DNA of 64,000 bases from Candidatus Limnocylindria bacterium (GCA_044866355.1 JBIOTW010000033.1:13373-77372), one strand, 5' to 3'. Shown: positions 1,785 through 15,835, counted from the stretch's first letter. Notes: a model not told the origin generated them from the sequence alone. Made by a program: numbers and translations.

Positions 1785-3294
1785 CGGTCAGGAGTCCGCC
1801 GCCGCCGATCAGCCGGGCCACCGCCGCGATGTCCGGACCCGGCGGGCGATCCTCGGTCAGGGGGTCGACGATGGCTCGGACTGCGGCGTGGGCTGCCGCT
1901 ACCCCCCGACCGGGACGCAGCGGAGCGCGCAGGTCGAGGCCGCGCGACGCACACAACGCTTCGATGCCCAGCACCGTCGCCACTCGGTCCACGGTCTCCC
2001 GGAGGAGGAGCCCGGACGTGACGCCCATGCTGACGTGGTCCTCCTGGTTGGCGCTGGTGGGGATGGTGTCGACGCTCGCCGGGTGGGCGATCGTCTTCAG
2101 CTCGTTGACCAGCGCGGCCGCCGAATACTGGGCGATCATCAGGCCGCTCTCCAGGCCCGGCTCGGATGCTAGGAAGGCCGGCAGGCTGGACAGCCGCGCG
2201 TCGACGAGGCGGGCCGTCCGCCGCTCCGAGATCGTTGCCAGGGCAGTGAGTGCCACTCGCGCCTGGTCCAGGGCCAGGGCCAGCGGCTCGCCGTGAAAGT
2301 TCCCGCCGCTGATGACGCGTCCGTCGGGGAACACCAGCGGGTTGTCGGTGGCGGCGTTCATCTCCACTGCCAGCACGTCCTCCAGCGGGTGCAGGGCATC
2401 GCCCACCGCGCCGTGCACCTGCGGCATGCAGCGCAACGAGTACGGGTCCTGGAGGCGATGGGGACTGGACCGATGGCTGGCCCCGATCTCGCTGTCGGCC
2501 AACAGCAGGCGCAACCGCTTGGCCGATGCGACCTGGCCGGGATGGGGTCGAGCGCCGATGAGCGCCTCATCGAACGCCGACGCGGTCCCCAGCATGGCCT
2601 CCAGGCTCATGGCGCCCACGACGTCCGCGCTGGCCACCAACCGCCATGCGTCCGCCACCGCCAGGGCGCCCAGGGCGGCCATCAGCTGCGTCCCGTTCAG
2701 GAGGGCCAGGCCCTCCTTGGCCTCCAGCTCCATCGGCTCCAGGCCAGCCGATGCCAGCGCTTCGGCGCCGGGCTGTCGCCGGCCGCCGACGTGCGCCTCG
2801 CCTTCGCCGATGACGACCAGGGCCAGGTGGGCGAGGGGCGCGAGGTCGCCCGAGGCACCGACGCTGCCCCGGGACGGAACGACCGGATGGACGCCGGCAT
2901 TCAACATGGCGACCAGCAGGTCCCCCAGCTCCGGGCGCACGCCGGACAGCCCAACGGCCAGGGCATTCACTCGCAGCACGAGCATGGCCCGCACGACTTC
3001 CTCGGGGAGCGGCTCGCCCACCCCGGCCGCGTGGCTGCGGACGAGGTTGCGCTGGAGGGTGGTGGTCTGCTCGGGCGAGATCCGGACGTCGGCCAGGTCC
3101 CCAAAGCCGGTCGTGACGCCGTAGACGGTCTCACCGGATGCCACGACCCGATCGATCACGGCACGCGAGGCGCCCATCCGCTCCCGGGCCGCGTCGTCCA
3201 GCTCCACCGGCCGCTTTTCGCGTGCCACGGCGACCACGTCCGCGACCGTCAGGTCGCGACCGGTCAGCCGGAGCGGAGCTTGCACGGGTCCCAT
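1777..3294 (-). CDS. hutH: Histidine ammonia-lyase family enzyme (HAL/PAL aromatic amino acid lyase)
   Basis: Contains GSVGASGDLAPLAHLAL (the ASG triad that forms the MIO cofactor) and TGFGDLADVRI. The track ORF (676 aa) is over-extended; an in-frame ATG at 3292-3294 gives ~506 aa, the normal HAL length. Confidence 0.85.
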   Translation of the reverse strand: MGPVQAPLRLTGRDLTVADVVAVAREKRPVELDDAARERMGASRAVIDRVVASGETVYGVTTGFGDLADVRISPEQTTTLQRNLVRSHAAGVGEPLPEEVVRAMLVLRVNALAVGLSGVRPELGDLLVAMLNAGVHPVVPSRGSVGASGDLAPLAHLALVVIGEGEAHVGGRRQPGAEALASAGLEPMELEAKEGLALLNGTQLMAALGALAVADAWRLVASADVVGAMSLEAMLGTASAFDEALIGARPHPGQVASAKRLRLLLADSEIGASHRSSPHRLQDPYSLRCMPQVHGAVGDALHPLEDVLAVEMNAATDNPLVFPDGRVISGGNFHGEPLALALDQARVALTALATISERRTARLVDARLSSLPAFLASEPGLESGLMIAQYSAAALVNELKTIAHPASVDTIPTSANQEDHVSMGVTSGLLLRETVDRVATVLGIEALCASRGLDLRAPLRPGRGVAAAHAAVRAIVDPLTEDRPPGPDIAAVARLIGGGGLLTDA

Positions 3295-3400
3295 ACTACG
3301 GACGTGCGGAGAATCCCGGACCCGACCAGGCGCCTGGTCGCCAACGCGGACGCAAGGGACTGGCTGGGCGGCGCCGTTCCGAGCCCCGCGGCCGCTTTCA

Positions 3401-4083
3401 TGCTCTCCCTCATCCTCATGCCCACTCTCTTCTGGCTCATCGCCCTGAAGCGGACCACCGGCAACCTCGTCCTCGAGGAATGGGTGATGACACAGGGCGT
3501 GCAGCCTTTGCAGGCCTGGGTGGGCGCGAACCTGCCGTTGGTCGACATCGCGCTGACCGCCGTCAGCGCACTGGGGTCCGGATGGTTCGTGGGGCTTGGC
3601 TTCGCGTTCTGTGGGCTGCTGGCCCTGGCCAAAGGGCGCCGTGACCTCGCGCTTCTGCTGGCCTTCGGGACACTCGCGTTCCCGATGGAATGGGCCCTCA
3701 AGTTCTTCGTGGCCATCACACCCATATCGGTCCCCCAGCTGGTGGCAGCCATGTTCAACGTCAACGAGATCGGGCTGGATGACATCGCCGTCTTTCCCGC
3801 CGGACACGCGTTGCGGGCCACGGTCTTCTATGGCCTGGTCGCCTTCTGCATCGCCCGCCTGTCATCGGACCGGCGGCAGGGCCTGATCGCCTATGCCGTG
3901 GCGCTGGTGCTGATCGTGGCCATCGGTCTGGTCCGGATCTACCTCAACCTCCACTACCCGCTCGACGTGCTGGGTGGCTGGATCGCGGGAGCGGCCCTCC
4001 TGTCGGTGCTGGTGTCCGTCCACATCCTCGGGGTCGATGAGCGCATGAACGCCGCCCTGCGGCAGCGTGTGGCGGCGGCCTAG
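3401..4083 (+). CDS. PAP2 superfamily phosphatase (undecaprenyl-pyrophosphate/phosphatidic acid phosphatase type)
   Basis: C-terminal 227 aa of track ORF 2293-4083: six TM helices and PAP2 motifs KRTTGN, FPAGHALRATVFYG, HYPLDVLGGW. ATG near 3401; the upstream ORF portion is antisense to hutH and discarded. Start coordinate +/-1 nt uncertain. Confidence 0.75.
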
Positions 4084-4092
4084 CCTGCCCGC

Positions 4093-4773
4093 GTGCTGGA
4101 GTTCATCGACCAGACGGTCATCCCCTTCTTCCTGGGGCTGTACGACGCCATCGGCTACCTGGGCGTGGCAGTGGGGGTGGGCCTGGAGACCTTCGTCCCG
4201 ATCCTGCCGTCGGAAGTCATCGTTCCCATGGCGGGCTGGAAGGTTGCGCAGTCTGGAGCCGATCCGGCCATCGTCGAGTGGCTGACCAACGGGCCGTGGA
4301 CCTTCGTCGGCGTCATGGTGGCGGCCACCATCGGAGCAGGCGCCGGATCCCTGGCCGGATATCTGATCGGTGCCTGGGGTGGCCGACCCCTGTTGGACCG
4401 ATACGGCCGATACGTCCACATCTACCCCGACGACCTGGATCGCGCCGATGCCTGGTTCGAGCGCTACGGCGGGTGGGCCGTCTTCCTGGCCCGTTTCGTC
4501 CCGCTCCTGCGAGCGCTGATCAACTACCCCGCCGGAGTGGCCCGGATGCCGATTGGCCGGTTCCTGCTGTTCTCGATCCTGGGCTCGATTCCGTGGAACC
4601 TGGGGCTGGTCGGGGCTGGATGGGTGCTGGGCGAGAACTACGAGGCCCTGTTCGAGGCCACCCGGCCGTTCGAGCTCCTGATCTACGTCATCGTTGTGAT
4701 TGGTGTAGTCGTGATCCTCATCCGCTGGGCCCGCGGCCGAGGCTCGCCCGCGCGGCTTGACGAAGAGCGCTAG
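4093..4773 (+). CDS. DedA/TVP38/SNARE-associated family membrane protein
   Basis: 226 aa, GTG start 9 nt after the PAP2 stop; DedA signature (ETFVPILPSEVIVPMAGW...GYLIG...RFVPLLRALINYPAGVARMP). Confidence 0.8.
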   Translation: MLEFIDQTVIPFFLGLYDAIGYLGVAVGVGLETFVPILPSEVIVPMAGWKVAQSGADPAIVEWLTNGPWTFVGVMVAATIGAGAGSLAGYLIGAWGGRPLLDRYGRYVHIYPDDLDRADAWFERYGGWAVFLARFVPLLRALINYPAGVARMPIGRFLLFSILGSIPWNLGLVGAGWVLGENYEALFEATRPFELLIYVIVVIGVVVILIRWARGRGSPARLDEER

Positions 4774-4805
4774 CGTTCGATTCCGATTCGCTCAGGGATC
4801 GCTCA

Positions 4806-6008
4806 GTGGCCAGGTCCGGGATCTCGGCGCCAGTCCTGTTCCTCTTTCTGGTGGTCGTCGCGGTCGTGGTCGCGGGAATCCTGGGGCGGGCAACAGGTCC
4901 AGCGAGCCCACCCGCATCGACCGCGCCGTCGGCCACAAGCCTCGGCGCTGAACCCTCGCCGGCGATCCCGCCAGCCGCACCAGATCTTTCGTGGCGTTCG
5001 GAACCGTTCCCTGGTGGAGGAGTCACCGCCGCCGCTTTCCACGATGCTGTTTGGGTCACCTTGGGACCCGGTGAGGCCTGGGCCTCGATGAATGGCCAAC
5101 CTTGGCAACCAGGAAGCATCGGCGAGATCGAGCCGCCGGAACAGCACGGAGAAGTCCTCTGGGCCTGGGACATCGCTCGACATGCCGACGCATGGATTGC
5201 GGTCGCGGTCTGGGACGGCCCCGCAGATTCTCAGCGGCCCGTCATCTATCAGTCCACCGACGGTCTGGCCTGGAGTTGGGTCCCGTCGTCGGAATGGTGG
5301 GGATTTGGTTCTTTGGCCATCGCCTCGAACGATTCGCTCCTCGTCGCCACGAATTCGAATTTCGGGATGGGGCAGGGATCCGTTTTCGTCTCCGACGACA
5401 TCGTCGACTGGGATGAGCACGTTGCGCCTGGCGGACCGGCCGCGATGGTCGACGTAACAGCGAGCCCGGAGAGGTTCGTCGCCGTTGGTGGACGACTTGC
5501 TGAGGACGGGGGCCTGTGCCCCGTGGCGTGGCAGTCCGGCGACGGAGTGGAATGGGAAGAGTCGGATCCTATTCCCGCTCCCCCGGGAAGGGGGGCAAAG
5601 GCGATCGGTCGGGCGCGTTCGGGCAGCTACGCCATCGTCGGGACGGAAACGCTTATCCCTGAGGGTTGTTCGTCGAATCCGTGCCTGCTTGAGAGAGTGC
5701 TCGCCTGGAGTTCTGCGGACGGGCAGCAGTGGGAACCTGCTGCTTTTCCGGATACGTCCTTCGGATTCGGCACCTTCTACCGCATGGCAATCGTGCCGGT
5801 TGCTGATGGCCTGGTTGCAGCAACGGTCGGCGGAGAGCACGCGAGTGCGTGGATCACTTCCGACGGCACTGCGTGGGAAGATCTGGGCGTGCCCTTCCCC
5901 GACGGTTCTACGATCGAGGCGATCGCCTCGAGCGGCGACGAGCTCCGCATTTTCCTGGCCTCCGACGTCGGGCGGACCGTCCTGATCGGGACTACGTCTC
6001 CGCCTTGA
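4806..6008 (+). CDS. Secreted/membrane-anchored BNR (Asp-box) repeat beta-propeller protein
   Basis: 400 aa, N-terminal TM/signal, Pro/Ala-rich linker, then at least four S-x-D-G-x-x-W boxes (STDGLAWSW, QSGDGVEWE, SSADGQQWE, TSDGTAWED). The 1181-aa antisense ORF over this region is treated as artefact. Confidence 0.6.
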   Translation: MARSGISAPVLFLFLVVVAVVVAGILGRATGPASPPASTAPSATSLGAEPSPAIPPAAPDLSWRSEPFPGGGVTAAAFHDAVWVTLGPGEAWASMNGQPWQPGSIGEIEPPEQHGEVLWAWDIARHADAWIAVAVWDGPADSQRPVIYQSTDGLAWSWVPSSEWWGFGSLAIASNDSLLVATNSNFGMGQGSVFVSDDIVDWDEHVAPGGPAAMVDVTASPERFVAVGGRLAEDGGLCPVAWQSGDGVEWEESDPIPAPPGRGAKAIGRARSGSYAIVGTETLIPEGCSSNPCLLERVLAWSSADGQQWEPAAFPDTSFGFGTFYRMAIVPVADGLVAATVGGEHASAWITSDGTAWEDLGVPFPDGSTIEAIASSGDELRIFLASDVGRTVLIGTTSPP

Positions 6009-6387: not shown

Positions 6388-7236
6388 ATGGAGCACCCAA
6401 GCCAGCCGCGCGCAGCACAGCCTGGTCCGGCGATCACGATCGAAGACCTGGCGGTCAGCTTTCCGGCCCCAACTGGAACCCTGACCGCGCTCGAGGATTT
6501 CAACGGCCGGGTCGGGCAGGGCGAGCTCGTGGCTGTGATCGGGCCCAACGGATGCGGCAAGAGCACCCTCCTGCGGGCGATCGCCGGCCTGGTGCCGCCC
6601 AGCGCCGGGCGCATCGGTCTGGGCCGAGATGGCGCGCCAGCCCGGGCCGGTGATGGTCGAATCGGTCTCATCTTCCAGCAGCCCCGCCTGCTCGGTTGGC
6701 GCTCCGCCCTCGAGAACGTGGCACTCCCCCTGGAGCTGGCAGACACACCCCGGGCCGAGCGTCGGGAGGCTGCCGAACGCGGGCTGAGCCAGGTTGGACT
6801 CGCCGACGTCGGCGACCTGCGACCGCGGGAGTTGTCGGGCGGCATGCAGCAGCGCGTCGCCCTCGCCCGCTCCCTGGTCACCGATCCGCCGGTCCTGCTC
6901 CTGGACGAGCCGTTCAGCGCGCTCGACGCCCTGAGTCGCGAGGCGTTCGACGCACAGCTCGAATCGCTGTGGCTCGCCCAGCGGCGGACCGTCGTGCTCG
7001 TCACCCACTCTGTAGGAGAGGCCATCCAGCTCGCCGATCGGGTCTGGGTCATGACCCCGCGTCCGGGGCGGGTCGCGGCGGACGTCCCGGTTCCGCTCTC
7101 CCGGCCGCGACGGACGGGCGTGGCCGCCGATCCGGGCCTGGCCGCGGTCGAGGTCCGGGTACGCGAGGCATTGGCCGCGGTCCACGCCCCCGAGCTCTCC
7201 GGCTGGGCCGAGCCCGGGCGGGAGGCCGCGGCATGA
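6388..7236 (+). CDS. ABC transporter ATP-binding protein (NitT/TauT nitrate/sulfonate/bicarbonate type)
   Basis: Walker A GPNGCGKST, signature LSGGMQQRVALARSL, Walker B LLLDEPFSALD. Internal ATG at 6388 chosen; the 66 upstream codons are Arg-rich junk. Stop overlaps permease start (ATGA). Confidence 0.85.
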   Translation: MEHPSQPRAAQPGPAITIEDLAVSFPAPTGTLTALEDFNGRVGQGELVAVIGPNGCGKSTLLRAIAGLVPPSAGRIGLGRDGAPARAGDGRIGLIFQQPRLLGWRSALENVALPLELADTPRAERREAAERGLSQVGLADVGDLRPRELSGGMQQRVALARSLVTDPPVLLLDEPFSALDALSREAFDAQLESLWLAQRRTVVLVTHSVGEAIQLADRVWVMTPRPGRVAADVPVPLSRPRRTGVAADPGLAAVEVRVREALAAVHAPELSGWAEPGREAAA

Positions 7237-8002: not shown

Positions 8003-9070
8003 ATGCGATCGCGCTCCATCCCCCTGGCAGTCGCGCTGAGCCTGGCCGTTGCGGCCTGCAACCGAACCGCGCCCCCGAGCCAGACCGCCAGTCCCGAGTC
8101 GACCCCATCCGCATCCCCGTCAGGCGAGCTCCGGCAGGTGCGCCTCCTGCTCGGCTTCCGCCCCGACGTCCAGTTCGCGCCGTTTTATCTGGCCCAGCAG
8201 GACGGCTATTTCGAGCGAGCAGCGCCAGCCTTCGGGCTGGACGTGACCATCGACCACGCTGGCGCGGGCGAGCTGATTCGGCTGGTGGCCACCGGCGAAG
8301 CCGAGTTCGGGGTCGCGGACGCCACCGACGTGATGATCGCGAGGACAAGCGGGATCTCGATCAAGTACGTGGCGACCCTGTACCAGTTCTTTCCGGTGGC
8401 CATCATCGGTCCGGTGGGGACGGTGCCGACCGATCCAGCGGACCTGGCCGGCCTTCGGATCGGGACCCCTGGCCGGTTCGGTTCCTCGTGGCACGCGCTG
8501 CTTACCCTGCTTGCGGCCGGGGGGCTGACGGCCGACGACGTGACGATCCGCGAGTACCCGCAGTTCAACCAGGTCGAGGGCCTGCTGAACGGCGACGTCG
8601 ATTTCATCACCGGCTTTCGCAACAACGAGCCGATCCGATTGGCCGCGGAAGGGATGGAGACCGACCTACTCACCATCGACGACATCGCTCCACTCCCAGG
8701 GCCCGGCATCGTCGTCAGCGACGAACTGTTGAAGTCCGACTACGATATGGTCTCCGCGTTTGCCGTCGCGGTAATGAGCGCTCAGCAGGCGATCGAGCAC
8801 GACCCCCAGCTTGGTGTTCGCGCTGCCGTCGCGGCTGTTCCCACCATCGCCGAGGACGAGGCGACCGCGCTTGCCGTACTCGAAGCCACTATCCCGATCT
8901 GGCGTGGCGCCGAGGCCGGCATCTTCGGGAACATCAACGAGTCGGTGTGGCAGAGCGGCTACGAGTCAATGCGGAATCTCGGGTTCATCGATGGTTCGGT
9001 TCCCATGGACGAGATGATCGAGTTCGTTGGGCAGGCAAGCCTGACGCTCAACCGCCGACGAGGAATATGA
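8003..9070 (+). CDS. ABC substrate-binding lipoprotein, NMT1/THI5-like (SsuA/TauA/ThiY fold)
   Basis: ATG 8003 preceded by AAAGGAAA Shine-Dalgarno; lipoprotein signal MRSRSIPLAVALSLAVAAC with lipobox; periplasmic binding-protein body. An alternative ATG at 7982 overlaps the permease stop. Confidence 0.8.
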   Translation: MRSRSIPLAVALSLAVAACNRTAPPSQTASPESTPSASPSGELRQVRLLLGFRPDVQFAPFYLAQQDGYFERAAPAFGLDVTIDHAGAGELIRLVATGEAEFGVADATDVMIARTSGISIKYVATLYQFFPVAIIGPVGTVPTDPADLAGLRIGTPGRFGSSWHALLTLLAAGGLTADDVTIREYPQFNQVEGLLNGDVDFITGFRNNEPIRLAAEGMETDLLTIDDIAPLPGPGIVVSDELLKSDYDMVSAFAVAVMSAQQAIEHDPQLGVRAAVAAVPTIAEDEATALAVLEATIPIWRGAEAGIFGNINESVWQSGYESMRNLGFIDGSVPMDEMIEFVGQASLTLNRRRGI

Positions 9071-11404: not shown

Positions 11405-11689
11405 TCAGGCGGCTGGATCCAGCGCGTCCACGAACCAGCGGCGGCGTCGAGCGTCGAAGACCAGCTCCAACGACTCCCCGGATTCGACCTCCACCACCAG
11501 CATCAGGCGCGGGGAGCTGCCCGCCGGATAGGCGGCCCGTTCGTCGCGCACGGTGGCCAGGCGCAAGATCCGCAGCTCGCGATCGCCGAAGCGGACGCGC
11601 GTCGGCCGGAGCTGCCCCGTATCCCAGGCGACCGACGCCGCAACCGGGGTGATGGAGACGAGAGCCATGAGGTCGACAATACAGAACAT
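11405..11689 (-). CDS. Small hypothetical protein (94 aa) with a LexA box overlapping its start codon
   Basis: ATG at 11687-11689 (reverse) lies inside AGAACATCTGTTCT; no TM segment, no motif I recognise. Alternative start MALVS at 11668. Begins 13 nt downstream of the dinB stop. Confidence 0.4.
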   Translation of the reverse strand: MFCIVDLMALVSITPVAASVAWDTGQLRPTRVRFGDRELRILRLATVRDERAAYPAGSSPRLMLVVEVESGESLELVFDARRRRWFVDALDPAA

Positions 11690-11695
11690 CTGTTC
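11684..11695. promoter_or_regulatory. LexA/SOS box (GAAC-N4-GTTC type), site 1
   Basis: cAGAACatctGTTCTag, palindromic, Gram-positive/actinobacterial LexA operator class; between dinB and the 94-aa ORF. Confidence 0.6.
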
Positions 11696-11701
11696 TAGTT
11701 G

Positions 11702-12883
11702 TCAAGAGTCGGGACGGCGCTTGCTGAACCGCCGTTCTGGCGCCTCGCGGAGCAGACGGGCACGGGTGATGGCCCGGTCGCCGAACTTCTCACGGACCGC
11801 ATCGGTGGCCTCGGCCAGGCGCTGCACGCGCTGGCCGTCGTCGAACAGGGTCAGCTGCTGGGCGTCGACCAGCGAGATGGCGGTGATCCCGATCAGTCGA
11901 ACCGCCCGACCCGGCTCCAGGGTGCGATCGAGGAGCCGATGAACGACCTCGAGCATGACGTGCGCGTCCGTCGTCGGATGCGGGAGCGTCATCTGGCGGC
12001 TCAGCGTCTCGAAGCCCTCGTAGCGGAGCTTGAGCTGGACCCCGCCCGCCGCCACGGAATGGCGCCGCAGGCGGCTCGCCACCGACTCCGCCAGCCATAG
12101 AAGGGTTCCCTCCAGGCCACTCCGCTCGGTGACGTCCACGTTGAAGGTGTGCTCATGACCGATGGACTTGGGGGCGTGGCCCGACACCACCGGGGATCGA
12201 TCGATACCGCGAGCGCGCTGTCCCAATTCCCCACCGTGCCGGCCGAATCGGCGACGCAGGGTCGCCTCCGGGACCGCCGCCAGCTGGCCGATGGTCGTCA
12301 CCCCGTAGTCCGCCAGCGCCTGCCGCACGCGGGGGCCGATGCCCCACAGGCGCGAGACCGGCAACGGGGCCAGGAACGCGGCCTCCTCGCCCGGAGCCAC
12401 CACGACCAGCGCGTCGGGCTTGCGCAGGTCGGAGGCGACCTTGGCCACCAGCTTGTTGGTGGCGACGCCCACGCTGACCACCAGACCGATCTCTTCGCGG
12501 ATGCGTGACTTCAGCGCCCGGCCGATGGTTGGGCCGTCGCCGGCCGGCGCGCCGGTGACGTCGAGAAACGCCTCGTCCATGCTGATCGGCTCCACGAGTG
12601 GCGTGTACGAATCGAAGACCCGCATGACCTGCAGGCTCAGCTCGGCGTATCGCTCTAACCTGCCCGGCAGGAAGACACCTTGTGGGCAGAGGCGGGCGGC
12701 CGTGCGCAGCGGCATGGCCGAGTGGACTCCGAAACGCCGCGCTTCGTAGGACGCAGCGCTCACCACGCCGCGCGCGTCCGGACGCCCGCCCACGATCACC
12801 GGCAGACCGGCCAGCGACGGGTCGTCCAGCACCTCGACCGAGGCGTAGAACGCGTCGAGGTCGGCGTGAAGGATGGTCCGCAT
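11702..12883 (-). CDS. dinB: DNA polymerase IV (Y-family translesion polymerase)
   Basis: 393 aa; MRTILHADLDAFYASVEVLDDP, SMDEAFLDVTG, Y-family palm, thumb and little-finger regions. Confidence 0.9.
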   Translation of the reverse strand: MRTILHADLDAFYASVEVLDDPSLAGLPVIVGGRPDARGVVSAASYEARRFGVHSAMPLRTAARLCPQGVFLPGRLERYAELSLQVMRVFDSYTPLVEPISMDEAFLDVTGAPAGDGPTIGRALKSRIREEIGLVVSVGVATNKLVAKVASDLRKPDALVVVAPGEEAAFLAPLPVSRLWGIGPRVRQALADYGVTTIGQLAAVPEATLRRRFGRHGGELGQRARGIDRSPVVSGHAPKSIGHEHTFNVDVTERSGLEGTLLWLAESVASRLRRHSVAAGGVQLKLRYEGFETLSRQMTLPHPTTDAHVMLEVVHRLLDRTLEPGRAVRLIGITAISLVDAQQLTLFDDGQRVQRLAEATDAVREKFGDRAITRARLLREAPERRFSKRRPDS

Positions 12884-12894
12884 GGATCCCGCGC

Positions 12895-14055
12895 TCAGTC
12901 CGTCCCGGGATACCGGCTGTAGGCGCCAGGGCCGAGGATCGGCAGCAGCCTGTCAGCTTCCGCCTCCAGGGCGTCGCGGTCGGCCGCCTTCAAGCGCCCA
13001 AACGGGCGGAGCTCGATGCGGGCGGCGCCGCCTCGGTCGCGGCGGGGCAGCCACGTCCCGGCCACCATGCCGTCGACCAGGAACGTGGGCAGGACATCCG
13101 CGTTGCGGGTGATGACTGTCGCCTGGTGGGCCGGCGGCAGGACCCGGCTTCGATGGGCCGTGCCGTAGGCCAGCAGCAGGCTGTCCCAGCGGGCGAGGAG
13201 CCGGGGAGGCGCCGGGGTGTCCGCGTCCGGCCGCGGGGCGTCCGGCAGGTCCAGGAGCGTGCGCCCCGCCTCGTCGGTGAAACGGGTCAGGTCCTCGCTC
13301 CCGTCCCCCATTGCCCTGCGCCAGCGCGTCAGCCACTTGCCGCGCCCGACGTACGCAGCCAGGTCCTCGACGCTGGCCGGCCCGAACGCGGCGAGGTATC
13401 GCCGGGCCAGGCGGCTCGTCGCCGCGTCCGGGTCCACCTGCTCAGGATCCGGCTCGCCCAGCCAGTCGCTGGCCGGCGCATATCGCGCCCGACCGTAGGT
13501 CTCCCCGTCGTGCGGCACCTGGATGAGCGGCACGCCTCCGCTGAAGTGGCGCCACAGGCATCGGTAGGGCGGGATCTCCATCCGCCCGACCTTCTCGGCC
13601 AGGATCGACTCGATCTCGTGGATCTGGAGCGGGCGCTCCGTCATGGCCGCCAGCACCGCCGCGTACCCCTTCCGGATTCGGCGGCCGAGGGGAGACGAGA
13701 CCGGATCGCGCTTGTACAGGATCCGCCACTGATTCCAGCGGAACGGCAGAGTCAGGGTGGACATCGCCCAGAAGTCCGTCGCGCTCACGACGTGAACCGT
13801 CAGCCGCATGAGCGAGGCGCGGACCACGGTCCGTCGGGCCCGGGCTCGGGACAGATCGACTGGTGGCACCTTCGTGGCAAGGCGCGTTTGGAGCGCGAGC
13901 GGCGGCCAATCGGGGTGCTGCGCCTGGAGGGAGCCGATCCGTTCGACCAGCCGGGCCACCGGCGCGCGGGGCAGGGAGCGCAGCAGCCCCTGGCGCGCGA
14001 GCGTTGCCCGATTCAGCTGGCGCTGGGTGAGCGTTGGCTGGGCCATGGGTCCCAC
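12895..14055 (-). CDS. Winged-helix DUF1006 protein, YcaQ/AlkZ-family interstrand-crosslink DNA glycosylase candidate
   Basis: 386 aa. N-terminus TLARQGLLRSLPR...RIGSLQAQ resembles the YcaQ/AlkZ N-terminus (E. coli LHLAAQGLL...LLQID) and carries a Q-phi-Q motif (LQAQ). C-terminal VLPTFLVDGMVAGTW resembles YcaQ FVLPLLHRGQLVGRMD. Judged from memory of family sequences, not a search. Confidence 0.5.
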   Translation of the reverse strand: MGPMAQPTLTQRQLNRATLARQGLLRSLPRAPVARLVERIGSLQAQHPDWPPLALQTRLATKVPPVDLSRARARRTVVRASLMRLTVHVVSATDFWAMSTLTLPFRWNQWRILYKRDPVSSPLGRRIRKGYAAVLAAMTERPLQIHEIESILAEKVGRMEIPPYRCLWRHFSGGVPLIQVPHDGETYGRARYAPASDWLGEPDPEQVDPDAATSRLARRYLAAFGPASVEDLAAYVGRGKWLTRWRRAMGDGSEDLTRFTDEAGRTLLDLPDAPRPDADTPAPPRLLARWDSLLLAYGTAHRSRVLPPAHQATVITRNADVLPTFLVDGMVAGTWLPRRDRGGAARIELRPFGRLKAADRDALEAEADRLLPILGPGAYSRYPGTD

Positions 14056-14095
14056 CAGCCTAGCGGCGGCCGCGCCGCCGCCATCGGTCAGTTGG

Positions 14096-14758
14096 TCAGA
14101 GCTTGCGGATGACGCCGACCACCTTGCCCTGGATCTGGAGCTCGGTGGCGTAGATGGGCTCCATTTCGGAGTTGGCCGGCTGGAGGCGGATCCGCCCGTC
14201 CTCGCGGTAGAACCGCTTCAGGGTGACCCCGTTGTCCTCCAGCAGGGCGACCACGATGTCGCCGTCCCGGGCGGTGGCCTGGGGCTGGACGATCACGAAG
14301 TCGCCGTCGTCGATCAGCGCGTCGACCATGCTCTTGCCCCGCACCCGAAGAACGTAGGAGTCCTCGCGGGCCTGGATCGAGCGCGGGACGTCGATGGGCT
14401 CGGGGTCCTGGTAGGCCTCGATGGGCTGGCCGGCCGCGATCTCACCGACCAGTGGCAGCTGCACGGGGTCGCGCTCGACCGGCATTCGGAAGGGCGTCAC
14501 TGCCCCACGGGCTGGCCGTGCGGGCGGTGCGGCGCCGGTGGCCTTGGCGGTCAGGCGCAGGGCGCGGGACGAGCGGCTGCCGCGTTCCAGCTGTCCCGAG
14601 CGTTCGAGCGCAACCAGGTGGTGATGGACCGCGGACGTCGAGGCGAGGCCGACCGCGTCCGCGATCTCGCGGACCGAGGGCGGGTATCCGCGCTCGGCCA
14701 CGGTTCGGGCGATGTAGTCCACGATGCGCTGTCGGCGCTCGGCGTCGTGCCGCGTCAC
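14096..14758 (-). CDS. lexA: LexA repressor
   Basis: 220 aa; N-terminal winged HTH (GYPPSVREIADAVGLASTSAVHHHLVALE), Ala-Gly cleavage site (IAAGQPIEA), S24 peptidase Ser-Lys dyad (RVRGKSM ... TLKRF). Confidence 0.95.
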   Translation of the reverse strand: MTRHDAERRQRIVDYIARTVAERGYPPSVREIADAVGLASTSAVHHHLVALERSGQLERGSRSSRALRLTAKATGAAPPARPARGAVTPFRMPVERDPVQLPLVGEIAAGQPIEAYQDPEPIDVPRSIQAREDSYVLRVRGKSMVDALIDDGDFVIVQPQATARDGDIVVALLEDNGVTLKRFYREDGRIRLQPANSEMEPIYATELQIQGKVVGVIRKL

Positions 14759-14773
14759 GTCGCCAGAGTATCA

Positions 14774-14785
14774 GAACGCCTGTTC
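14774..14785. promoter_or_regulatory. LexA/SOS box, site 2 (lexA autoregulatory operator; shared with divergent DUF1232 gene)
   Basis: cAGAACgcctGTTCTaa located 16 nt upstream of the lexA ATG (14756-14758). Confidence 0.65.
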
Positions 14786-14849
14786 TAATGTCAACGTCTT
14801 GGTATCATCCCGGCCCACCTCGTCCCGTCTGACCGGAGATCGCAGCGAA

Positions 14850-15350
14850 GTGTTCCGTCCCGGCCGGTGGCGTTATCTGCGCGCCGCCAAAGTTCTGCTC
14901 CAGCTCCCCTCCTACGCCCGCCTGGTTTGGGGGCTGGCCCGCGACGCGCGCACCCCCGTCGCCCTCAAGGCCGTGCTCTTCGCAGCCCTGGTCTACGTCA
15001 TCGCTCCCATCGACCTGATTCCGGACGTCATTCCCATCCTCGGTGCGGCCGATGACCTGACCGTCCTGCTCCTTGTCCTGGACCTGTTCATCAGCAATGC
15101 GCCCGCGGCGGTCCGCGAGGAGCACCTGGCTCGGGCCAAGGCCGGGCAGGCAGTGCTCGACGAGGACCTGGCACGCCTCCGCACGCTGCTTGGCGCTCGG
15201 TACGACCGCATCCGGGACACCTTGCCTGAGCTCCTGGATCGATTCGGCGGCCTGCGGGATGCGGATGAGGTCAAGAAGCAGATCGCCGGGTGGCGTGCCG
15301 CACGAGGCAAGACTGACGCGCGCCCCGAGACGCCCGTGGAGGCGAAATGA
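14850..15350 (+). CDS. DUF1232 (YkvA-like) small membrane protein
   Basis: Track ORF 14724-15350; I place the start at GTG ~14850 (MFRPGRWRYL). Conserved KALLYFISPIDLIPDxIPxLGxxDD-type segment (LVYVIAPIDLIPDVIPILGAADDL). Divergent from lexA. Confidence 0.5.
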   Translation: MFRPGRWRYLRAAKVLLQLPSYARLVWGLARDARTPVALKAVLFAALVYVIAPIDLIPDVIPILGAADDLTVLLLVLDLFISNAPAAVREEHLARAKAGQAVLDEDLARLRTLLGARYDRIRDTLPELLDRFGGLRDADEVKKQIAGWRAARGKTDARPETPVEAK

Positions 15351-15823: not shown

Positions 15824-15835
15824 GAACGGGTGTTC
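15824..15835. promoter_or_regulatory. LexA-like box, site 3, in the rplI-dnaB intergenic region
   Basis: cAGAACgggtGTTCGat, about 145 nt upstream of the dnaB GTG; same extended AGAAC-N4-GTTC core as sites 1 and 2. Confidence 0.4.

Follow-up and report, generated by a model that had tools for sequence, protein, structure and literature searches.

Why does a gene for a DNA glycosylase of the AlkZ type lie between lexA and dinB? AlkZ-like (AZL) proteins have been framed as self-resistance determinants of genotoxin gene clusters, and the YcaQ-like (YQL) proteins of the same HTH_42 superfamily as general enzymes that are constitutive in Escherichia coli. The question is raised by a stretch of 64,000 nucleotides (64 kb) from a Candidatus Limnocylindria bacterium (GCA_044866355.1, JBIOTW010000033.1:13373-77372), here called the window, in which an AZL-type gene is flanked by lexA and by dinB, the gene for DNA polymerase IV (Pol IV). 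An earlier note on this DNA had recognised LQAQ as a putative QΦQ catalytic motif and suggested that the gene may be a housekeeping variant with AlkZ-like chemistry. The family of the protein, the register of its motif, its predicted fold, the order of the genes and the conservation of a promoter together with its LexA box lead us to conclude that the gene is probably the middle one of a LexA-autoregulated lexA–AZL–dinB operon that is conserved in the class Limnocylindria, and that it would be induced by DNA damage along with Pol IV.

The AZL gene (12895..14046, minus strand) encodes 383 aa from an ATG at 14046. The open reading frame (ORF) spans 12895..14055 and would yield 386 aa if a GTG at 14055, 3 codons further upstream, were used. 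As the closest named homologues, which are from Candidatus Limnocylindria (Chloroflexota), are 383 aa long and have the N-termini MAQP or MPP, the ATG at 14046 is most likely the true start. Residues 37-371 of the product match the Pfam family PF06224, 'DNA glycosylase AlkZ-like' (E 1.5e-62), and cover positions 1-327 of the 329 in the profile; the score of 212.6 bits, against a gathering cut-off of 25.9, places it in the HTH_42 superfamily. Its homologues number in thousands, and no second HTH_42 paralogue was found when one was sought across the 64-kb window. An AlphaFold2 model (pLDDT 92.7, pTM 0.91) and Foldseek predict three winged-helix domains, and the predicted architecture, tandem winged helices with a C-terminal beta domain, is that of the AlkZ fold. 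When the predicted structure was used to query PDB with Foldseek, the top match was AlkZ (5uuj; E 5.8e-18, TM 0.75/0.77), followed by the AlkX/YcaQ structure 9zd6 (TM 0.66) and then by the C-terminal domain of Lhr.

The flanking genes are on the same strand. lexA (14096..14758, minus strand), which would be the first gene of the operon, matches TIGR00498 (E 4.6e-58) and the Pfam domains LexA_DNA_bind and Peptidase_S24, and its translation contains the AAG cleavage site, the KSM serine and the LKR lysine. dinB (11702..12883, minus strand) matches NF002677 above the cut-off (E 7.9e-106) and the Pfam domains IMS, IMS_C and IMS_HHH, and its translation includes the catalytic HADLDAF (DxD) and SMDEAF (DE) segments and a QQLTLF clamp-type motif. 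lexA and the AZL gene are separated by 40-49 nt, and the AZL stop codon and the dinB start by 11 nt. A scan of 4.9 kb around the locus detected no promoter-like or terminator-like sites between the three genes. The same scan returned two sigma-70-like promoter matches, where 0.3 were expected, and each has a GAAC-N4-GTTC box in its spacer. The first, TTGACA-16-GATACT (14767..14794, minus strand; box at 14774..14785), is upstream of lexA. The second, TTGACA-18-TATTGT (11676..11705, minus strand; box at 11684..11695), is just downstream of dinB and precedes a small ORF described below; an additional box at 11726..11737 lies upstream of it, within the 3' end of dinB. The box occurs four times in the window, compared with 0.5 expected. 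In Firmicutes and Actinobacteria the LexA motif is GAAC-N4-GTTC, and Chloroflexi have been reported to use variants of it (PMC4951493, which cites the Dehalococcoides work of Fernandez de Henestrosa 2002). The predicted site upstream of lexA is a box of the lineage type that overlaps the promoter of a transcription unit, as in members of a LexA regulon, and we infer that LexA binds at this boxed promoter and that lexA, the AZL gene and dinB are co-transcribed from it.

The arrangement is conserved in relatives. Taking one genome per GTDB species, we surveyed 80 AZL loci, each together with at most 4 kb of flanking sequence. lexA is adjacent to the AZL gene in 10 of them, all from Limnocylindria, Chloroflexota or metagenome-assembled genomes (MAGs), and dinB is present as well in seven of the ten. 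The other 70, from Actinomycetota (including Streptomyces), Myxococcota, Variovorax, Paenibacillaceae, Chloroflexia, Acidobacteriota and other lineages, have neither lexA nor dinB within the fetched flanks and no GAAC-N4-GTTC box within 350 nt upstream. Sixteen distinct related loci have the AZL gene beside lexA and/or dinB, with AZL identities of 35-72%. Where the AZL identity is 66-72%, lexA, the AZL gene, dinB and the small ORF are retained in the same housekeeping synteny, and where it is 42-54%, the AZL gene still stands between lexA and dinB, 4-12 nt from its neighbours or overlapping them by 4 nt. Across the relatives the gaps range from 4 to 51 nt, or the genes overlap by 4 nt. A TTGACA hexamer with the box a few bases after it is present in the window and in all 14 of the related loci whose contig extends upstream of lexA (14/14), all of them from Limnocylindria/Chloroflexota. 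In four linked genomes (loci L036, L034, L041 and L022), two tandem AZL genes, the first with QGQ and the second with QAQ, lie between lexA and dinB; in L036 they occupy 2859..3977 and 3974..5107, so that the end of the first, with its stop codon, shares 4 nt with the start of the second.

The adjacency could have no regulatory meaning if the AZL gene were a constitutive, independently transcribed housekeeping glycosylase gene, comparable to ycaQ in its msbA-lpxK-ycaQ-kdsB region. E. coli ycaQ is indeed constitutive, and was not SOS-induced alongside lexA and uvrA by mechlorethamine (PMC7367128). High-GC promoters are often missed by a sigma-70 consensus scan, and the 40-49-nt spacer between lexA and the AZL gene includes a strong hairpin, with a G+C-rich 10-bp stem and no U-tract (14061..14083, minus strand; RNAfold -28.6 kcal/mol including flanks). 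However, no promoter-like site was seen before the AZL gene or dinB, the 4-12-nt gaps and 4-nt overlaps in the relatives leave no room for a promoter, and the linkage survives down to 35% AZL identity and through AZL duplication and is absent from the other lineages surveyed. We therefore consider constitutive, independent expression unlikely. The term 'housekeeping variant' used in the earlier note is probably the wrong one, as the evidence favours a LexA-repressed, damage-inducible gene, unlike the constitutive ycaQ (PMC7367128). The hairpin could be an attenuator. A similar one was found in L002, the closest relative on a long contig, and none in L004, L006 or L011; as it is present only in the window and L002, we dropped the idea that it is a conserved attenuator.

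The identity of the gene product depends on the register of its motif. The LQAQ codons, read directly from the sequence, are at 13918..13929 (minus strand). In the 386-aa numbering the residues are L43-Q44-A45-Q46, and in the 383-aa numbering the glutamines are Q41 and Q43. An alignment with AlkZ of Streptomyces sahachiroi and YcaQ of E. coli had been suggested for the claim that LQAQ is QΦQ in the AlkZ catalytic register. Performed here by five routes that agree with one another, it confirmed the register, with LQAQ aligned to VQAQ in AlkZ (catalytic Q37/Q39) and to LQID in YcaQ (Q45/D47); Q45 and D47 are the published catalytic residues of YcaQ (PMC7367128). As LQAQ does align with the catalytic motif, that observation stands. 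In the Pfam matches, profile position 1 falls 7 residues ahead of the first glutamine in both the AZL protein and an N-terminal fragment of AlkZ, and the same 7-residue offset was found in E. coli YcaQ (I38, ahead of Q45/D47) and in Thermobifida fusca AlkX. A HMMER profile built from 29 relatives (A2) spans AlkZ 5uuj residues 17-364 (E 7.6e-33) and sets 'ggLqAQ' over 'CGVQAQ' of AlkZ with high posterior confidence. A narrower, earlier profile (A1) gave the same register against AlkZ, with a weak motif region (i-Evalue 140). MAFFT alignments of 137 and 47 sequences place QAQ of the AZL protein and AlkZ in the same columns as QID of YcaQ and T. fusca AlkX (TfuAlkX). The register also agrees in an hhalign comparison of A1 with YcaQ; its overall match is weak, and because the probability is 2.4% it is counted only as corroboration. 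In a single-sequence phmmer search of PDB, the aligned part of AlkZ was the C-terminal half only.

The conservation of the motif bears on whether the protein is an enzyme. The sequence LQ[AGS]QHPxWP, which is the fifth route to the register, is present in all of the 119 full-length proteins (119/119) drawn from the 120 closest cluster representatives, with LQAQHPDWPP as the clade signature. Among the nearest 50%-identity representatives, 134 were aligned, and QxQ is found in 130 of the 132 that cover the motif region. The glycosylase activity of AlkZ requires both glutamines (PMC7367128). The conserved motif and the predicted fold suggest AlkZ-like chemistry for the AZL protein. A predicted fold of three winged-helix domains would also be compatible with a protein that binds DNA without catalysis, such as a sensor of lesions or a factor that recruits or regulates Pol IV. 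Homologues are annotated as 'winged helix DNA-binding domain-containing protein', related Lhr domains occur in other contexts (PMC10953399), and glycosylase activity in the lexA-linked clade is itself deduced from sequence. Such a role is at odds with the invariance of QxQ in the close homologues and its near-invariance in the distant ones, and with the dependence of AlkZ on both glutamines. In addition, the HTH_42 proteins assayed so far, AlkZ, YcaQ, AlkX, HedH4, AZL2 and TxnU/LldU, are all glycosylases (PMC9040887, PMC8934636, PMC11228520). We regard a purely DNA-binding protein as quite improbable.

Within HTH_42, Bradley et al. define AZL proteins by the motif (Q/H)ΦQ, YQL proteins by QΦD and AZL2 proteins by HΦ(S/T)(D/E) (PMC9040887). 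LQAQ, in register with Q37-Φ-Q39 of AlkZ, corresponds to the first of these. It does not correspond to QΦD, as Q46 stands where YcaQ has D47 and TfuAlkX has D58, nor to the AZL2 motif, as the local sequence is QAQH. Alignments revealed that the 4-residue insertion found right after the motif in YcaQ and TfuAlkX is not present. Searches of PDB sequences matched AlkZ only (E 1e-8, 2.6e-13 and 7.6e-33), and the YQL structure 9zd6 was never matched in PDB sequence or HMMER searches with the AZL protein or its profiles. The AZL protein is 23.6% identical to AlkZ, compared with 16.7-18.0% for YcaQ and TfuAlkX. In a rough neighbour-joining tree, rooted with YcaQ and without support values, it is inside a QxQ radiation that also holds Streptomyces proteins. 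By sequence, predicted fold and this rough tree, it is an AZL-type HTH_42 protein, and the gene product is an additional member of the AZL subfamily.

The protein thus resembles AlkZ and the other AZLs (HedH4, TxnU2/4 and LldU1/5) in its full-length HTH_42 region, its QΦQ register and the lack of the YQL insertion. With S. sahachiroi AlkZ it also shares a literal QAQ, and no other PDB entry matches it as well in sequence or in fold. It differs from AlkZ in that the identity is about 24%, the gene is, by the ORFs checked, not in or near a biosynthetic gene cluster (BGC), and it is embedded in the putative lexA operon with dinB. It is also highly conserved over a whole bacterial class, as reflected in LQAQHPDWPP, whereas cluster AZLs are variable. 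With the YQL proteins (E. coli YcaQ and the AlkX proteins of Acinetobacter baumannii and T. fusca), it has in common the superfamily and the fold, as well as a chromosomal, non-cluster and lineage-conserved location in conserved synteny; it differs in having QΦQ rather than QΦD, no insertion and only 17-18% identity.

It is very improbable that the gene serves self-resistance in the classical way, as part of a cryptic BGC for a DNA-alkylating natural product, like AlkZ, HedH4, TxnU and LldU. The protein is of the QΦQ type and nearer to AlkZ than to YQL proteins, and Streptomyces BGCs are enriched in AZLs (PMC9040887). But the neighbours are housekeeping genes, and the ORFs checked include no polyketide synthase (PKS), non-ribosomal peptide synthetase (NRPS) or tailoring genes; the synteny recurs in relatives at 66-72% AZL identity, and close homologues are highly conserved, unlike the variable cluster AZLs. 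The ORFs checked were the neighbours and the ten largest in the window. Besides lexA and dinB, the neighbours encode an FTCD_C cyclodeaminase, FolD, a TauE permease, a DUF1232 protein, RplI, DnaB, a zinc-ribbon protein, a GuaB-like protein and GuaA, and the ten largest ORFs (UPF0182, GGDEF, GlgE, GH18, rotamase and others) are housekeeping or otherwise non-biosynthetic. Location in or near a BGC is typical of AZLs and not obligatory, and among these ORFs no such location was seen. With this housekeeping context and the same synteny in relatives, the BGC hypothesis was rejected, and the earlier description of a gene between lexA and dinB in a conserved, non-biosynthetic chromosomal context was borne out. 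The accompanying statement that QΦQ enzymes are usually cluster self-resistance proteins holds for Streptomyces only. QΦQ accounts for about 45% of 4,650 Pfam HTH_42 proteins (PMC7367128), and 40 AZL genes not located in BGCs have already been analysed by Bradley et al. in 2022, without an explanation being offered (PMC9040887). As QxQ is also found in 130 of 132 representatives here, a QΦQ gene outside a cluster is not unusual in itself. The earlier observation is thus confirmed and its interpretation partly supported. It is the conserved lexA–AZL–dinB operon itself that seems to be the undescribed part.

Several points weigh against a LexA-controlled operon that links the glycosylase to Pol IV. 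The strong hairpin between lexA and the AZL gene could reduce read-through from lexA, and the promoter scan was of the sigma-70 type; internal promoters of other types may be present. Two Limnocylindria loci, L012 and L013, have lexA and the AZL gene with a boxed promoter (in L012, lexA at 3279..3947 and the AZL gene at 4001..5146) and no dinB in the downstream sequence covered, about 4 kb in L012 and about 1 kb in L013. The AZL gene therefore need not be coupled to Pol IV. In the rough tree the SOS-linked AZLs fall into two non-sister clades. As a result, a single ancestral operon is not established, and these sequences would fit an ancient operon that arose once as well as recruitment on two occasions. 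AlkZ, at ~24% identity, is on a long basal branch in the same tree, and the AZLs that have been characterised show high substrate specificity and weak activity on simple lesions (PMC9040887). Finally, every functional step, from LexA binding and co-transcription to glycosylase activity, substrate and functional coupling to Pol IV, is in silico.

The LexA-controlled operon would operate as follows. In undamaged cells, LexA would occupy the GAAC-N4-GTTC box in the spacer of the sole recognisable promoter and keep expression of all three genes low. On DNA damage, RecA-stimulated self-cleavage of LexA would relieve the repression, and the glycosylase and Pol IV would be made together. On the model of AlkZ, YcaQ and AlkX, the pair of glutamines in LQAQ would position a water molecule for hydrolysis of the N-glycosidic bond of a bulky or crosslinked N7-alkylguanine. 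An abasic site would be left and, where the substrate is a crosslink, the opposite strand would in addition retain a monoadduct. These intermediates would then be bypassed or filled by Pol IV, perhaps with help from the 87-aa protein described below, which has LexA boxes of its own. A more specific version, in which this is a dedicated LexA-controlled Limnocylindria module, the AZL protein unhooking interstrand crosslinks or removing bulky N7-guanine adducts and Pol IV, with or without the 87-aa protein, performing obligatory translesion synthesis (TLS) or gap filling, is tentative and in our view somewhat doubtful. Its targets might be, for example, genotoxins of soil actinomycetes.

In vertebrates, NEIL3 unhooks interstrand crosslinks and translesion synthesis follows. 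The likeness to the proposed module is one of concept only, an unhooking glycosylase leaving an abasic site, for which a TLS polymerase is required; here both activities would be encoded in one operon, and the protein folds are unrelated. The glycosylase pathway of crosslink unhooking is summarised in PMC7367128. If the module is real, bacteria would have, encoded in one operon, an equivalent of the NEIL3-plus-TLS repair of crosslinks in eukaryotes, and the AZL protein would be the first HTH_42 member of an SOS regulon. More broadly, a class-wide lexA–AZL–dinB operon would give the orphan, non-cluster AZLs a testable hypothesis, namely that DNA damage induces unhooking by base excision, or the removal of bulky adducts, in combination with lesion bypass, in a lineage of abundant, uncultured soil bacteria. 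Freshwater relatives of this soil lineage have been described as glycosylase-poor (PMC13212565).

The operon would also add a glycosylase to the known cassettes of lexA and a Y-family polymerase. lexA–imuB-C–polY of Geobacter sulfurreducens, the operons of DinB, LexA and ImuB-C, and lexA–imuA–imuB–dnaE2 likewise have lexA co-oriented with and adjacent to an active Y-family polymerase gene, and a LexA box. In these cassettes a small all-beta protein of ~85 aa stands beside the polymerase (PMC3765255, PMC6511836), again as predicted here. The locus in the window and its relatives differ from these cassettes in having one or two AZL genes between lexA and dinB. An HTH_42 glycosylase does not appear in the passages covered of the papers on these cassettes; the word 'glycosylase' occurs 0 times in PMC6511836 and refers only to UDG/Tdg in PMC3765255. 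For the YQL genes, A. baumannii alkX is induced by mechlorethamine, with no LexA site reported in the passages covered (PMC11228520), and no LexA box or lexA linkage of a YQL gene is described in the literature covered. A full-text search of part of the literature, pairing LexA or SOS with HTH_42, DUF1006, AlkZ or YcaQ, returned only the finding that ycaQ is not SOS-induced, and a recent paper on Limnocylindria genomics mentions neither LexA nor SOS. As far as could be found in this partial literature, a LexA operon that holds an HTH_42 gene along with that for Pol IV is undescribed, and represents a variant both of AZL biology and of the LexA–Y-polymerase cassettes.

The small ORF downstream of dinB (11405..11668, minus strand; 87 aa), which is preceded by the second boxed promoter-like site, is itself conserved. 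Orthologues follow dinB in L002-L006, L010 and L011, and single or double boxes are found at the same position ahead of the small ORF in L002, L004, L006, L010 and L011. The ORF has 836 homologues; among the 120 matches listed, the lengths are 86-115 aa and there is no Pfam domain. The RRW at the C-terminal end is invariant in 25 sequences, and an AlphaFold2 model is all-beta, with six strands. A standalone ImuB-C protein would have about 80 aa in an all-beta fold, Trp and basic residues conserved at its C-terminus, and homology to that end of ImuB. The 87-aa protein could be a standalone ImuB-C-like SOS protein on this model; it had no Pfam, NCBIfam or other profile match, so that homology to ImuB-C is not demonstrable. 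In L002, a third GAAC-N4-GTTC box (8638..8649) lies directly after the small ORF and before the FTCD_C–folD genes, and there is no perfect box at that position in the window.

The loci with tandem AZL genes belong to a second group of Limnocylindria/Chloroflexota MAGs, and in this group the place of the 87-aa ORF after dinB is taken by another conserved small ORF, with a called length of about 85-113 aa. Its sequence is IAQVAIDFISFCF…EWP.LYDEMCYVA..RLYRGLGY, and copies are at 6462..6734 in L036, 3311..3568 in L009, 6463..6735 in L034, 5904..6173 in L041, 6560..6814 in L084 and 4167..4508 in L022. The L036 copy had no significant Pfam or NCBIfam match.

AlkZ-like tandems or duplicates that are not linked to lexA were seen in other phyla, in L017 and L028 (both Gaiellaceae), L072, L075 and L055 (Acidobacteriota), and local duplication thus appears common in the AZL subfamily. 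The fourth perfect box in the window (15824..15835) is between rplI and dnaB and precedes the start of dnaB by ~145 nt. As it has no counterpart at that position in L002-L006, it may be a chance occurrence or strain-specific. The DUF1232 gene (14724..15350, plus strand) is divergent from lexA and shares with it the intergenic region that contains the LexA box. It is the head of a conserved DUF1232–rplI–dnaB string.

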